Made by a program: the position numbers and the translations under genes. Source: a virus (Duplodnaviria; Heunggongvirae; Uroviricota; Caudoviricetes). Taken from it: a stretch of DNA of 5,563 nucleotides. Positions 1 to 5,563 of this stretch are shown here, one piece after another; position 1 is the first letter of the stretch; every line of letters begins with the position of its first letter. The stretch is from IMG/VR virus record IMGVR_UViG_2657244940_000011. The stretch is one strand, 5' to 3'. The notes under the pieces are model-generated. The model saw nothing but the letters and a program-made list of their open reading frames with translations, searched no databases and was not told where the DNA came from.

Positions 1-41
1 GGTTAGCCTCTTACGTGCCGAAAGGCAAGGAGAAGCAGGCT

Positions 42-197
42 ATGAAGCAGCAAAAGGCGATGTTAATCGCCCTTATCGTCATCTGTTTAACCGTCATAGT
101 GACGGCACTGGTAACGAGGAAAGACCTCTGCGAGGTACGAATCCGAACCGGCCAGACGGAGGTCGCTGTCTTCACAGCTTACGAACCTGAGGAGTAA
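42..197 (+). CDS. hokD: Hok/Gef-family type I membrane toxin (51 aa; HokD/RelF-like)
   Basis: Translation MKQQKAMLIALIVICLTVIVTALVTRKDLCEVRIRTGQTEVAVFTAYEPEE has the Hok signature (hydrophobic helix, TRK-LCE-R-R-G-EVA-F-AYE) and matches my recollection of HokD/RelF. AAGGAG at 27-32 sits 9 nt before ATG 42; TAA stop at 195-197. The ORF track starts at in-frame GTG 15, which would add a 9-aa extension and is judged less likely. Confidence 0.85.
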   Translation: MKQQKAMLIALIVICLTVIVTALVTRKDLCEVRIRTGQTEVAVFTAYEPEE

Positions 198-2968: not shown

Positions 2969-3334
2969 ATGACCGAACGCATAGAATTTGTTTTGCCTTA
3001 CCCGCCGACGGTGAACACTTACTGGCGACGCCGTGGCAGCACATATTTTGTATCAAAAGCCGGGGAGCGTTATCGCCGGGCAGTGGCGCTTATTGTTCGC
3101 CAGCAGCGGCTGAAATTAAGCCTGTCCGGAAGGCTGGCGATAAAGGTGATTGCAGAGCCACCGGATAAGCGTCGTCGCGACCTGGACAACATTCTGAAAG
3201 CACCGCTGGATGCGCTGACGCATGCGGGAGTGCTCATTGATGACGAGCAGTTTGATGAAATCAATATTGTACGTGGTCAGCCAGTATCTGGTGGACGGCT
3301 GGGTGTGAAGATTTACAAAATTGAGAGTGAGTGA
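2969..3334 (+). CDS. rusA: Crossover junction endodeoxyribonuclease RusA (Holliday junction resolvase)
   Basis: 121-aa product with PDKRRRDLDN...DAL...DD...GGRL, matching the RusA catalytic-region pattern as I remember E. coli RusA. ATG 2969 directly abuts the upstream TAA (2966-2968). Confidence 0.9.
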   Translation: MTERIEFVLPYPPTVNTYWRRRGSTYFVSKAGERYRRAVALIVRQQRLKLSLSGRLAIKVIAEPPDKRRRDLDNILKAPLDALTHAGVLIDDEQFDEINIVRGQPVSGGRLGVKIYKIESE

Positions 3335-3897
3335 GCGTAAATATGATATATCCGGAAATTACAGGCAAAAGCGGCGAGCATTTACGCCTAAAAACGCTGG
3401 AAGCAGTCTGGATCCAAGGGCGATTACGGATGTGGGGGCGTTGGTCGTATATTGGCGGCGGTAAGACGGGAAATATGTTCAACCAATTACTGACCTCTAA
3501 AAAGCTGACAAAAACGGCAATTAACGAGGCGCTCCGGAGGATGAAAAAAGCTGGTCTGGACAAACCTGAACTTGAGGCTTTTTTGCGGGATATGATCAAC
3601 GGCAATCAAAAAAGCTGGCTGGCACATTGTACCGATTCAGAGGCGTTAATAATCGACAGGGTTATTGGCGAAGTCCTGGCAGGCTATCCCGGGCTGCTCA
3701 ATGTCCTGAGTCAGCGTTATGTGGGGCGGGGGATGACTAAGCGCAAAATGGCTGAACTGCTGAATGATGCACACCCGGAATGGAGTTTAAGAACCTGTGA
3801 AAGACGCATTGAGCATTGGCTAAAGGTGGCAGAATTTATTTTGTACAAACCAATGGTTATGGCTTTTGGTATAGAGAAAAAAGTTATTGCTTTTTGA
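3331..3897 (+). CDS. Late-gene antitermination protein Q (Q21/QuuD-like family)
   Basis: GTG 3331 overlaps the rusA stop (GTGA); an alternative start is ATG 3343. The N-terminal W-G-x-W...G...LLTSKK pattern resembles what I recall of QuuD. Position after rusA and just before a short leader plus strong terminator matches the canonical Q-PR'-tR' arrangement. TGA stop at 3895-3897. Confidence 0.7.
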   Translation: MSVNMIYPEITGKSGEHLRLKTLEAVWIQGRLRMWGRWSYIGGGKTGNMFNQLLTSKKLTKTAINEALRRMKKAGLDKPELEAFLRDMINGNQKSWLAHCTDSEALIIDRVIGEVLAGYPGLLNVLSQRYVGRGMTKRKMAELLNDAHPEWSLRTCERRIEHWLKVAEFILYKPMVMAFGIEKKVIAF

Positions 3898-3976
3898 CGT
3901 AAAAACTGCTTCAATTTCGGTACGCTTCGCAAAGCCGTACCACGAGGCGAATAGCAGACATGGACATTTGAAAGAG
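3867..3976 (+). promoter_or_regulatory. Putative late promoter PR' / qut region and short leader
   Basis: Placed by synteny (Q stop to tR'). Candidate elements are an extended -10 TGgTATAGA (3867-3875), TTGACG (3894-3899) and a hairpin ggtacg(3919-3924)/cgtacc(3936-3941). No consensus -35/-10 pair could be fixed by eye. Confidence 0.3.
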
Positions 3977-3998
3977 CCCGCTTTTTGCGGGTTTTTTT
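3977..3998 (+). terminator. Intrinsic terminator (tR'-like) ending a short post-Q leader transcript
   Basis: Hairpin cccgc(3977-3981)-ttttt-gcggg(3987-3991) followed by TTTTTTT (3992-3998). Confidence 0.7.
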
Positions 3999-4139
3999 AT
4001 GCCTGAAAAACGGCACAGAACATTAAACGCGCTGGTGGTTGCGAATACCGGTCTTTCAGCTTGCTGGCTTTTCCGACAAGAGTTATTGGTATGTTACGTT
4101 AACCAGAAAATGGAAAAAGACATGCTAAAACAGTAGGAT

Positions 4140-4319
4140 ATGACCGAAACCGCCAGAGTGGTGTTTAATGAATTAAGTGCCACCGAACCGGCGACAGTCG
4201 GGGAGATTGCGCAGAATACTTACCTTTCACGTGAACGCTGCCAGTTAATACTGACCCAGCTTGTTATGGCGGGGCTGGCAGACTATCAGTTCGGTTGTTA
4301 CAGACGCCTTCAGTCCTGA
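4140..4319 (+). CDS. Small helix-turn-helix-like protein (59 aa), absent from the ORF track because it is below 60 aa
   Basis: ATG 4140 to TGA 4317-4319 encodes MTETARVVFNELSATEPATVGEIAQNTYLSRERCQLILTQLVMAGLADYQFGCYRRLQS. The segment GEIAQNTYLSRERCQLIL looks like an HTH. AGGA at 4135-4138 is only 1 nt from the ATG (poor spacing), and an in-frame TAG lies at 4134-4136. The stop codon is inside the 3' stem of a strong terminator. Confidence 0.4.
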   Translation: MTETARVVFNELSATEPATVGEIAQNTYLSRERCQLILTQLVMAGLADYQFGCYRRLQS

Positions 4320-4329
4320 AGGCTTTTTT
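4306..4329 (+). terminator. Intrinsic terminator
   Basis: Hairpin gccttca(4306-4312)-gtcc-tgaaggc(4317-4323) followed by TTTTTT (4324-4329). Confidence 0.65.
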
Positions 4330-4422
4330 ATTTGTGGTAAATGGGCGGCTGGTGGGTGTGGTGGTTGTTGCTTTCCCGTTGCTGAAAAAGAAAGCATCAG
4401 GCGATTAGCAGGGTATCAGTTA

Positions 4423-4673
4423 CCCGTTGAAATTTTTAAATACCTCACAATTCAGGCGGTTGACTGTTGTCTGGTTTGCGGGGAGTTTGTTAAAAGAAAC
4501 TGGCATGGTGAATCCCCCTGTGCGGAGGGGCAATCAGCGACTGGTGTTTTGTCACCGACCCTTATCCTTTCTGTGCGGGTTCAGGTGCTGATACTGAACT
4601 CACCGGGAGGCACCCGGCATCATGCAATGGCACATAGCGCCACTCTCCAGCCCCTCTCCGGAGGGGCTTTTCT
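4423..4673 (+). repeat. Tandem repeat unit A (~250 bp) carrying three conserved GC-rich hairpins
   Basis: Shares with unit B: cccgtt(g/a)aat at the start, ctcacaattcag (4444-4455), TTGAC (4460), gcatggtgaatccccctg(t/a)gcggaggggc (H1, stem 4515-4530), ctgaactcaccgggaggcacccggca (H2, 4594-4619, 26/26 identical) and agcccctctccggaggggcttt (H3, 4649-4670, 22/22 identical). Confidence 0.6.
4650..4673 (+). terminator. Intrinsic terminator (hairpin H3 of repeat unit A)
   Basis: gcccctc(4650-4656)-tccg-gaggggc(4661-4667) followed by TTTTCT. Confidence 0.55.
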
Positions 4674-4861
4674 GTGCCGGATACATCACAGTTTCTGGAA
4701 CCTTAGGTACTACAGTATCAGTCAGGGTGCTATATTTTCAGATGTGATGAAAGCCTGTCAGCAGGCAGGGCGTATCGGAAATGACCCAGTAGAGAAAACG
4801 TTGACTCAGATACCGGTGCTGAGTTACCGGGAAACCGGCATCACATGACCGCTATCCTTCT

Positions 4862-4889
4862 AGGCCCATCCGCTCCGGTGGGCCTTTTT
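4862..4889 (+). terminator. Intrinsic terminator preceding repeat unit B
   Basis: aggccca(4862-4868) ... tgggcct(4879-4885) with an internally paired loop (ccg-ctc-cgg), followed by TTTTT (4885-4889). Confidence 0.6.
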
Positions 4890-4906
4890 ACTGCAGAAAA
4901 CAGGTT

Positions 4907-5160
4907 CCCCGTTAAATGCTATGTTGCTCACAATTCAGTAAGTTGACAGTTGCCTGTCAGACTGGGCATTTGTTAAAAAAATTTCGCATGGTGAATCCCC
5001 CTGAGCGGAGGGGCGACTGGTGACGGTATAATCTCTGATTATCAAAACGAGAATGACGCGGGTTTAGTGGCACCGGGCTGAACTCACCGGGAGGCACCCG
5101 GCACCATGTGCATGATGATACAGATACGCGGCTTTAGCCCCTCTCCGGAGGGGCTTTCTT
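4907..5160 (+). repeat. Tandem repeat unit B (~250 bp), diverged copy of unit A, offset ~484 bp
   Basis: Same three hairpins at nearly the same spacing as unit A (H1 stem 4998-5013; H2 stem 5087-5101; H3 5137-5154), with diverged spacers. Also carries the palindrome tgacag-ttgc-ctgtca (4944-4959) and a perfect TATAAT (5027-5032). Confidence 0.6.
5137..5160 (+). terminator. Probable intrinsic terminator (hairpin H3 of repeat unit B)
   Basis: gcccctc-tccg-gaggggc followed by an interrupted T-run TTTCTT; weaker than the unit A copy. Confidence 0.4.
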
Positions 5161-5166
5161 GTGGGC

Positions 5167-5191
5167 AAAAAAAGCCCGAGTGGGTTCGGGC
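5167..5191 (-). terminator. Hairpin with A-tract on the + strand, i.e. a terminator-like structure for the - strand (or bidirectional with 5137-5160)
   Basis: AAAAAAA (5167-5173) then gcccga(5174-5179)-gtgggt-tcgggc(5186-5191); on the - strand this reads hairpin plus TTTTTTT. No - strand gene is visible downstream within the window. Confidence 0.35.
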
Positions 5192-5246
5192 AACAGCATG
5201 AGATATACATTTTTATAATCGAATGGATTTTAACCAGAATTCATAA

Positions 5247-5271
5247 GGCTGCGCAACTGCGCGGCCTTTTT
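5247..5271 (+). terminator. Intrinsic terminator
   Basis: ggctgcgc(5247-5254)-aact-gcgcggcc(5259-5266), an 8-bp stem with one G-U pair, followed by TTTTT (5267-5271). Confidence 0.55.
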
Positions 5272-5373
5272 CGTATTGCGGGCTGTAGTCTTCCTCCTGC
5301 CATTGTCCTGTAACTTCCGGACTTCAGCTCGCTCCTTATCTGACTCACAACATTATCCCGACCGGGAGGATTC

Positions 5374-5563
5374 ATGACATTTAAACACTACGATGTGGTC
5401 AGGGCGGCGTCGCCGTCAGACCTTGCGGAGCGACTGACACAAAAACTGAAGGAGGGGTGGCAGCCATTTGGCAGCCCTGTCGCCATCACGCCTTATACCC
5501 TGATGCAGGCCATTGCGGCGGAAGGTGATGTCACCACACCTGTGGTGGTGAAGCCGTCGGATG
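5374..5563 (+). CDS. Hypothetical late-region phage protein, 5' end only (runs off the window)
   Basis: ATG 5374 is preceded by GGAGG at 5365-5369 (4-nt spacing). The frame is open for 63 codons to the window end (MTFKHYDVVRAASPSDLAERLTQKLKEGWQPFGSPVAITPYTLMQAIAAEGDVTTPVVVKPSD...). Not in the ORF track because there is no stop in the window. Confidence 0.6.
   Translation, partial: MTFKHYDVVRAASPSDLAERLTQKLKEGWQPFGSPVAITPYTLMQAIAAEGDVTTPVVVKPSD

Follow-up and report, generated by a model that had tools for sequence, protein, structure and literature searches.

The question raised by the locus considered here is why seven hairpins resembling intrinsic terminators are crowded between the Q gene and the first large late gene of a lambdoid Escherichia coli prophage. 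The window, i.e., the whole stretch of 5,563 nucleotides (nt) from the IMG/VR virus record IMGVR_UViG_2657244940_000011, represents the nin-Q-late junction of such a prophage, and the hairpins, six on the + strand (T1 to T6) and one on the - strand (T7), lie in the ~1.45 kb, with little coding sequence, between a DUF1133-family gene and a DUF1737/SASA-type esterase gene. A preliminary description of this DNA regarded the pile-up as unusual and as a stacked barrier that would make late and lysis gene expression tightly dependent on Q, and added in closing that independently transcribed small genes or RNAs might be involved. The analysis reported here supports the closing suggestion: with a probability of roughly 85%, the region is a cargo ("moron") slot in which each hairpin ends a small unit of its own. 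Six of the seven hairpins close an identifiable unit at its 3' side or have a counterpart that does so in a relative, and the seventh, T6, matches the terminator of the small RNA (sRNA) PasD.

Hairpins between the Q gene and the esterase gene

All seven hairpins listed in the preliminary description are present at the positions given there, with RNAfold energies of -9.1 to -17.8 kcal/mol for the bare hairpins folded alone, and each is followed by a T-run on the same strand, the weakest being that of T5 (TTTCTT; Table 1). A built-in scan found 16 terminator-like sites in the whole window, compared with 5.2 +/- 2.7 in shuffled sequences, and recovered six of the seven hairpins, missing T1. A stricter scanner of our own, which requires a single hairpin with a free energy (dG) of -9 or below and at least five T in eight positions, detected six + strand sites and one - strand site in positions 3960-5290, where 200 dinucleotide-preserving shuffles gave a mean of 0.33 sites (standard deviation 0.55, maximum 2), and four + strand sites in the remaining 3959 nt of the window. 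The general setting of the hairpins, a gap between a Q-type gene (3331-3897) and the esterase and lysis genes, likewise held. The statement that the gap has almost no coding capacity was nearly right, the reservation being one credible open reading frame (ORF) of PHROG family 331 (phrog_331) at 3999/4140-4319. Hairpins derived from tRNA genes were considered and rejected, with no tRNA gene found by ARAGORN in the window; relatives do have tRNA cassettes in the slot.

Units that end at the hairpins

The T3, T4 and T5 hairpins close three units related to the sRNA STnc100, which are arranged in tandem and designated copies A, B and C. Promoter-like elements are conserved before all three and before the anti-sRNA gene described below. 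Copies A and C are full-length and both score above the gathering score of the STnc100 family (47, RF02076). The phage matches start ~30 nt upstream of the Rfam STnc100 model, and the putative starts of the RNAs are read at GCATGGTG, that is, at 4503 in copy A and at 4986 in copy C. A conserved block, TCACAATTCAG..GTTGAC..GTTG.CTG...TTGTTAAAA, precedes the copies; the predicted promoter of copy A is in register with that of copy C (repeat D1) and conserved in all family members, and that of copy C has an 18-nt spacer. These predicted starts and promoters are supported by PasD2 of enteropathogenic E. coli (EPEC) E2348/69 (NC_011601, 741157-741328), the ends of which come from RNA-seq coverage and northern blot size (PMC8550237 Table S6), because its 5' end coincides exactly with the homologous GCATGGTG, upstream of which lies TTGACT-17-TTAAAA. 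T5 does not vary in seven of the eight aligned loci, and 933W has a different stem with a T-run at this place.

In Salmonella, an RpoD signal obtained by chromatin immunoprecipitation with exonuclease digestion (ChIP-exo) has been reported at STnc100 promoters (PMC10794520); a sigma-54 -24/-12 motif, an idea prompted by an RpoN ChIP-exo report (PMC10794520), was not seen on inspection by eye only. Just before the well-spaced -35 elements of copies A and C, at 4444-4466 and 4927-4949, the TCACAATTCAG..GTTGAC(A/T) part of the block contains a second -35-like hexamer that is 7 nt too far upstream, and in PasD2 TTGACT itself lies 17 nt from the -10 element; this part might bind a regulator or serve as an alternative promoter. 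In Stx2 phages, STnc100 is reported to lie 75 nt downstream of stx2B (PMC12370729), and it was located there in Stx2a_WGPS6 and 933W. Its RNA has been detected by reverse transcription quantitative PCR in vesicle preparations of Shiga toxin-producing E. coli, a result that reveals neither the size of the transcript nor binding to Hfq (PMC12370729). None of these sRNAs is annotated by RefSeq in the loci examined. A RefSeq pseudo "hypothetical protein" opposite copy A (L002 5505-5645 and L003 6555-6695, corresponding to about 4490-4630 of the window, - strand) overlies the gene of a structured RNA and is an artefact of annotation, and a 195-amino-acid ORF across copies A and B (4261-4848) was dismissed as spurious, as it is without family support and overlaps structured RNA genes.

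Copy B, which ends at T4, is more divergent and structurally intact. RNAfold predicts the same fold as for copies A and C, with a closing helix, a 5' hairpin, two 3' hairpins and the terminator, the closing helix being formed by AUGUGAUG/CAUCACAU in copy B versus GCAUGGUG/CACCAUGC in A and C. A covariance model (R1) built from nine A/C-type sequences, with the B-type left out, aligns copy B across model positions 1-179 (41 bits, E 8e-11) and finds the B-type at full length in the window, L003 and L011 (41-45 bits, E ~1e-10 to 1e-12). In an alignment of 15 confident members, which was fitted to R1 and thereby favours the structure, standard pairs occupy 99.3% of the cells, and 21 of 37 pairs show two-sided changes, a number reached by none of 500 shuffles (7.9 +/- 2.0); controls with slid partners gave one to five such pairs, and in the terminator helix six of eight pairs are compensatory. 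Copy B thus shares the fold of the STnc100/PasD structural family through compensatory changes. It was found in 673 of 5,426 complete E. coli genomes (~12%) as two alleles, ~99% and ~85% identical, and the 85% allele of L011 has kept the extended -10 element TGcTATATT and, with other base pairs, has also preserved the 5' hairpin and the terminator. A decayed pseudogene is ruled out by the fold, the covariation, the extended -10 element and the 673 genomes with two alleles. The A-B-C arrangement is conserved, because L011 carries the full array downstream of a different Q.

T7 terminates, on the - strand, an anti-sRNA gene of the AsxR family. The match to the AsxR model is a border case (63.0 bits, exactly at the gathering score of 63), and that to the AgvB model stays below its gathering score (43.4 bits versus 56). 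RNAs of the AsxR/AgvB type are 51-60 nt long, of which ~42 nt on the 3' side are conserved, whereas the 5' end is variable (PMC4104026), and according to Tree et al. (2014) the moron site contains, 3' of PR', pairs of converging sRNAs, AsxR included (PMC4104026). The same layout of a conserved 3' part, a variable 5' end and a convergent sRNA 3' of PR' is present here: the 53-nt anti-sRNA gene aligns with AsxR model positions 1-53 with an identical 3' part, and it converges with copy C, so that T5 and T7 stand back to back with their stems 18 nt apart (5155, 5174) and both T-runs between them. The predicted -35 element, TTGCGC, lies inside the T6 hairpin; it is kept in both anti-sRNA alleles, each with an allele-specific -10 element (TAAAAT or TATTAT) 18 nt away, and is likely to be the -35 of the anti-sRNA promoter in both. 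The second allele, which has a different stem (GCCCGCGTCTCCCAGCGCGGGC) with a T-run, replaces the AsxR type at the same place in L003, L004, L006 and L007. It closely resembles, with one stem mismatch, an unnamed EPEC sRNA candidate from the ligation and sequencing of interacting RNAs (RIL-seq) in the E2348C_1409/1408 intergenic region. In the anti-sRNA, the variable seed region at the 5' end (5196-5221) reads CGAUUAUAAAAAUGUAUAUCUC, compared with CGAUUAUUAAAACGAGUAUCUC in the AsxR of 933W, and as the two differ at ~5 positions, the target may differ from FnrS. The + strand of the same segment contains a perfect TATAAT (5214-5219).

The T6 of 933W is identical. The 3' arm of T6 and the T-run form part of a conserved block before the esterase gene, and the extension of its 5' arm belongs to the AsxR-allele module. 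It matches the PasD2 terminator at 22 of 25 nt, with a local score of 33 versus 16.5 +/- 2.3 in shuffles, and both hairpins lie ~90-100 nt before the esterase start. PasD is an abundant Hfq-dependent sRNA of EPEC (PMC8550237); PasD2 scores 34.6 bits with R1, and a 2026 preprint independently links PasD to STnc100 (10.64898/2026.05.13.724894). A more extended homology between the PasD 3' region and the spacer from T6 to the esterase gene was rejected, since MAFFT yielded no alignment and only the 25-nt hairpin match is significant. T6 as the end of a PasA/PasC-type sRNA was also discarded, as PasA is located on the other strand and past the esterase gene, downstream of it.

T1 belongs to the Q module. 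As in lambdoid late control, a Q-family antiterminator gene lies directly upstream, and an intrinsic terminator that stays with the Q module follows shortly downstream. The product of 3331-3897 matches Pfam DUF1133 (350 bits), Phage_antitermQ (PF06530; 32.6 bits, cut-off 26) and PHROG 753, "anti-termination protein Q-like" (269 bits), and distantly the Q21 structures 6P18/6JNX (phmmer E 7e-4); this type of Q occurs in 1,846 of the 5,426 E. coli genomes. In five DUF1133-Q prophages with Q genes only ~70% identical and with very different downstream cargo (holins, tolA, tRNAs), TTGnnT-17-TTCAAT and TAnGCT are conserved, as is the leader after the Q stop codon; the stem sequence of T1 varies among the diverged prophages and the T-run is kept. 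Because of this conservation beside diverged DUF1133 Q genes, 3887-3915 is interpreted as the late promoter PR', TAnGCT as a candidate pause site and T1 as tR', which would end a predicted PR' leader RNA of ~77 nt. The T1-type hairpin follows diverged DUF1133 Q genes irrespective of the cargo. Three unrelated Q modules also have a hairpin with a T-run at the place of T1, with different loop and upstream sequences, and relatives with unrelated Q genes have sequence in common with the window from ~3987 on. The first + strand terminator was found 44-81 nt past the Q stop codon in nine of the eleven loci scanned with our own scanner, the window counted, and no + strand terminator was found at this distance in L003 or L005. 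At the start of the predicted leader (3919-3942), a perfect 6-bp inverted repeat, GGTACG...CGTACC, encloses an 11-nt loop; its helix is not kept in the diverged DUF1133-Q relatives. The idea that STnc100 is itself the leader between PR' and tR', analogous to lambda 6S RNA, was ruled out, as the same STnc100 units follow unrelated Q genes, the pR' of 933W is annotated separately, and the conserved predicted promoter and T1 stay with the DUF1133 Q.

T2 and the stop codon of the phrog_331 ORF overlap. The PHROG profile matches 4140-4319 with 114.6 bits and 3999-4136 with 28.9 bits in one reading frame, the latter stretch corresponding to the N-terminal part of the profile, and there is a weak match to a TrmB-like winged helix. 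An in-frame TAG at 4134-4136 (CAG in L001, L002 and L003) leaves 59 codons from the ATG at 4140; relatives annotate 65 amino acids from the ATG at 4122 (WP_000917743 in L001). The TAG therefore either shortens the product from 65 to 59 amino acids or marks a pseudogene. Whether the longer, 107-codon form represents the real gene is doubtful, as L002 has a stop near the N-terminus. T2 is retained in L001 and L003, and in L002 the stem is the same with a different loop (GCCTTC-cgcagt-GAAGGC, followed by a T-run).

Table 1. Features of the interval from the Q-type gene to the esterase gene (window positions; dG in kcal/mol for bare hairpins)
Feature	Position	Strand	Details
Q-type late antiterminator gene, DUF1133 family, 188 amino acids	3331-3897	+	Pfam, PHROG, phmmer
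Predicted late promoter PR'	3887-3926	+	conservation; -35 TTGCTT 3887-3892, 17-nt spacer, -10 TTCAAT 3910-3915, start near 3922
-10-like TAnGCT	3921-3926	+	candidate sigma-dependent pause site
T1, putative tR' of the Q module	3974-4000	+	hairpin 3974-3994; dG -12.7; run of seven T; tail TTTTTTTATG
phrog_331 small ORF (PHROG family of unknown function)	3999-4319	+	PHROG profile
T2	4306-4329	+	hairpin 4306-4323; dG -9.1; run of six T; tail TTTTTTAT
Predicted promoter, copy A	4467-4496	+	-35 TTGTCT 4467-4472; extended -10 TGtTAAAAG 4488-4496
STnc100 sRNA gene, copy A	4503-4677	+	RF02076 match 4474-4679, 138.1 bits; R1 178.5 bits
T3, terminator of copy A	4649-4676	+	hairpin 4649-4668; dG -16.7; tail TTTTCTGTG
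Predicted extended -10, copy B	4728-4736	+	TGcTATATT; identical in the 85% allele of L011
B-type STnc100 paralog, copy B	4742-4893	+	divergent, structurally intact
T4, terminator of copy B	4862-4890	+	hairpin 4862-4885; dG -15.7; tail TTTTTACTG
Predicted promoter, copy C	4950-4979	+	-35 TTGCCT 4950-4955; extended -10 TGtTAAAAA 4971-4979; conserved block
STnc100 sRNA gene, copy C	4986-5164	+	RF02076 match 4957-5166, 165.5 bits; R1 180.3 bits
T5, terminator of copy C	5136-5163	+	hairpin 5136-5155; dG -16.7; tail TTTCTTGTG
AsxR-family anti-sRNA gene	5167-5221	-	RF02703 match 5221-5169, 63.0 bits
T7, terminator of the anti-sRNA	5191-5167	-	hairpin 5191-5174; dG -9.9; tail TTTTTTTG
Predicted promoter, anti-sRNA	5227-5256	-	-10 TAAAAT 5232-5227; -35 TTGCGC 5256-5251; read from sequence
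T6	5245-5275	+	hairpin 5245-5268; dG -17.8; ~100 nt upstream of the esterase gene; tail TTTTTCGTATT
DUF1737/SASA-type esterase gene (nanS-p-like), start	5374-5563	+	Pfam DUF1737 63 bits; annotations of L001-L008

Variation of the interval among related loci

When the same scanner was applied to the interval from Q to the esterase gene in eleven loci, the window included, the number of + strand terminators was two in PhiR5_1, PhiR12_1, Stx2a_WGPS6 and mEp460, three in VT1-Sakai, four in phi296, five in 933W and L002, six in the window and L001, and about seven in L003. The pile-up had been called unusual; with five such sites in 933W and about seven in L003, it is not, and the window is near the upper end of the range only through its three STnc100-family units. 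The count tracks the cassettes present, namely tR', the phrog_331 ORF, a tRNA cassette with its own terminator, stx, one or three STnc100 units and T6. As expected of morons, whole units differ from locus to locus, namely the phrog_331 ORF, the tRNA cassette, stx, the STnc100 units and the anti-sRNA alleles, and each cassette has a hairpin with a T-run. In the GenBank records of 933W and VT1-Sakai, pR' and qut are annotated together with two or three rho-independent terminators in succession, and three of the five + strand sites of 933W are annotated in its record. Comparison with L002-L007 places breakpoints of module homology in or beside hairpins, at ~3987 (T1), at 5160-5195 (T5/T7) and at 5241-5250 (the 5' arm of T6).

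Explanations for the hairpins

In a cargo slot of this kind, transcription would probably be organized as follows. PR' would fire constitutively, and in the lysogen its transcript would stop at T1 (tR'), leaving a short leader like lambda 6S RNA or StxS; for Stx phages, Sy et al. have shown that transcription from PR' is constitutive and that in lysogens it ends at tR' (PMC7547250). The leader would be followed by the phrog_331 ORF ending at T2, and then by the tandem copies A, B and C, which would be transcribed from their own predicted promoters and end at T3, T4 and T5. The AsxR-family anti-sRNA would be produced from the opposite strand and end at T7, and T6 would be the counterpart of the terminator with which PasD ends in EPEC. 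During lysogeny, the terminators would provide the sRNAs with a 3' hairpin and U-tail, the usual Hfq-binding end, and would prevent transcription begun at the sRNA promoters from entering the esterase and lysis genes. On induction, polymerase loaded with Q at PR' would read through all terminators, as suggested by what is established for lambdoid Q proteins and by the homology to Q21.

It should be noted that several points weigh against this reading. We infer promoter activity, termination in vivo and Q-dependent read-through from sequence comparison, and none of the predicted promoters passes the built-in consensus scan; the predicted PR' has a -10 element without the consensus A at position 2, and the scan makes no call there. 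Copy B matches RF02076 at 4718-4891 with 28.5 bits (E 0.0024), under the gathering score of 47, which is why it is a divergent paralog and not a member of that family, and the covariation values come from the R1-fitted alignment. The T-run of T5 is poor. A + strand promoter was found neither for the phrog_331 ORF or a transcript ending at T2 nor for a transcript ending at T6, and T2 and T6 may therefore act only on read-through transcription. In addition, the functional tR' of Stx phages is reported to lie 258 nt from PR' (PMC7547250), at the place of the second of the hairpins annotated in 933W, so that T1, T2 or both may do the stopping here; the first good-looking hairpin need not terminate efficiently.

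The reading of the preliminary description, namely that the hairpins were selected as a stacked barrier making late and lysis gene expression tightly Q-dependent, draws on the fact that all six + strand sites face transcription from PR' upstream of the esterase and lysis genes, on T2 and T6, which are without identified promoters of their own, and on the successive terminators annotated after pR' in 933W and VT1-Sakai; what is known about intrinsic termination also leads one to expect a cumulative block to unmodified polymerase. However, of the seven hairpins all but T6 end an identifiable gene or RNA and T6 matches the PasD terminator, the viable sequenced phages PhiR5_1 and PhiR12_1 of the same layout manage with two, and the number tracks the cargo content and not the type of Q or of lysis genes. 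Furthermore, T7 has the wrong orientation for a barrier, and the terminator stems covary within the sRNA fold. Selection for a barrier is therefore very unlikely, and the cumulative barrier is plausibly a by-product and not the organizing principle. The alternative that had been offered alongside it, independently transcribed small genes or RNAs, is the one borne out by the STnc100-type and AsxR-type units ending at hairpins. The breakpoints in or beside T1, the T5/T7 pair and the 5' arm of T6 could also suggest that the hairpins are chiefly joints of recombination or scars left by mosaic evolution and now play no part in transcription, yet the exchange of whole units would in any case place breakpoints at unit boundaries. 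On the strand of the adjoining gene, a T-run follows every hairpin, compensatory change has preserved stems (T2 and T7 retain a stem and T-run despite sequence change), and homologous RNAs (PasD, AsxR and STnc100) have been reported, discrete transcripts with ends at such hairpins among them, all of which makes scars extremely improbable.

A further possibility concerns T5 alone. If it were leaky, part of the transcription of copy C would run to T6 and produce an RNA of ~285 nt that is antisense to the AsxR-type RNA over its full length and crosses the anti-sRNA promoter, which would couple the levels of both RNAs. The weak T-run, the similarity of T6 to the terminator of PasD, an STnc100 relative without a T5-like hairpin, and the location of the predicted anti-sRNA -35 element in T6 point in this direction, but the stem of T5 is strong (-16.7 kcal/mol) and invariant in most loci, Stx2a_WGPS6 has T5 without the anti-sRNA and without T6, and no long isoform is reported in the cited literature, so that the proposal is unlikely. 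The wider notion of A-B-C as a conserved multi-sRNA locus of the window and its close relatives (~85% in L011), with a B subtype below the Rfam threshold and with sRNAs that might be linked through a leaky T5, is advanced as doubtful and tentative.

Neighbouring genes and other features of the window

The gene order in the window is hok/sok, a Fic-domain gene, DUF968, RusA, the DUF1133 gene in the Q position, the ~1.45-kb gap and the esterase gene, which is the first large gene of the late operon and extends past the window end. A Hok-family toxin ORF occupies 15-197 (+), and the 3' part of the sok antisense RNA, cut by the window edge, is recognized at 1-47 (24.9 bits); in the closest relative, L001, hokD is annotated and the full sok match reaches 113 bits. 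A weak isrK-like match at 206-287 (26.7 bits, gathering score 50) ends in a hairpin (267-282) with a T-run, and full matches to isrK and C4 antisense RNA are found in the nin regions of phages L006 and L007. A Fic/DOC-domain ORF at 602-1096 (Pfam, 45.7 bits) is preceded by a 75-amino-acid ORF (365-592), and the two might form a toxin-antitoxin-like or moron pair in the nin region (365-1133), with a closing hairpin (1110-1133) that is scored as a terminator in both orientations.

Significance and comparison with known systems

STnc100, AsxR/AgvB, PasD, leaders of the tR'/StxS type and the arrangement of the moron site have already been published, and the pile-up of hairpins is ordinary for this slot. 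Modestly new are the B-type paralog, which is below the Rfam threshold and yet structurally conserved and widespread, the conserved A-B-C array, T6 as the counterpart of the PasD terminator, and the prediction of PR' and a pause element for the DUF1133 Q family; the divergent third STnc100-type gene and the late promoter prediction are useful and incremental. For annotation, the lesson is that a run of terminators after a prophage Q gene marks a row of sRNA genes missed by protein-centred pipelines. In related phages Shiga toxin is encoded in this slot, which also carries sRNAs that retune the regulation of the host in pathogenic E. coli, and PasD and the anti-sRNAs rank with the most abundant accessory sRNAs of their hosts (PMC8550237, PMC4104026).

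The closest known arrangement is that of 933W/Sp5, where Q is followed by pR'/qut/tR', tRNAs, stx2AB, an STnc100-type sRNA, AsxR, the esterase gene and the lysis genes, and the elements present in the window have the same order. The hairpins of the AsxR terminator and of T6 are identical in sequence, and in both cases an STnc100-family RNA lies directly before AsxR and converges with it, with the esterase gene next. In contrast to 933W/Sp5, the window is without stx genes and tRNAs, has a DUF1133 Q and not the Q of 933W, and contains three STnc100-family units instead of one; moreover, the STnc100 copy of 933W has another terminator stem, and the AsxR-type RNAs are not identical in the 5' variable region.

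The layout of the predicted PR' parallels the annotated pR'/qut of 933W, and, as for the lambda 6S and StxS leaders, a conserved, here predicted, promoter at the end of Q is followed by a conserved leader and an intrinsic terminator. There is no sequence similarity to the 933W leader except for a short CGTAAAAA-CTGC motif in the promoter spacer. The leader predicted here has ~77 nt versus 258 nt for the StxS precursor; lambda 6S RNA has 194 nt. PasD2 resembles copies A and C in its GCATGGTG start, its match to R1 and its position before the esterase gene, and its closing hairpin resembles T6. PasD differs from these copies in that it has no internal terminator of the T5 type and carries its seed in a 3' extension of ~60 nt. 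Compared with STnc100 and PasD, copy B, with its 28.5 bits against RF02076, represents a further and more divergent subtype.

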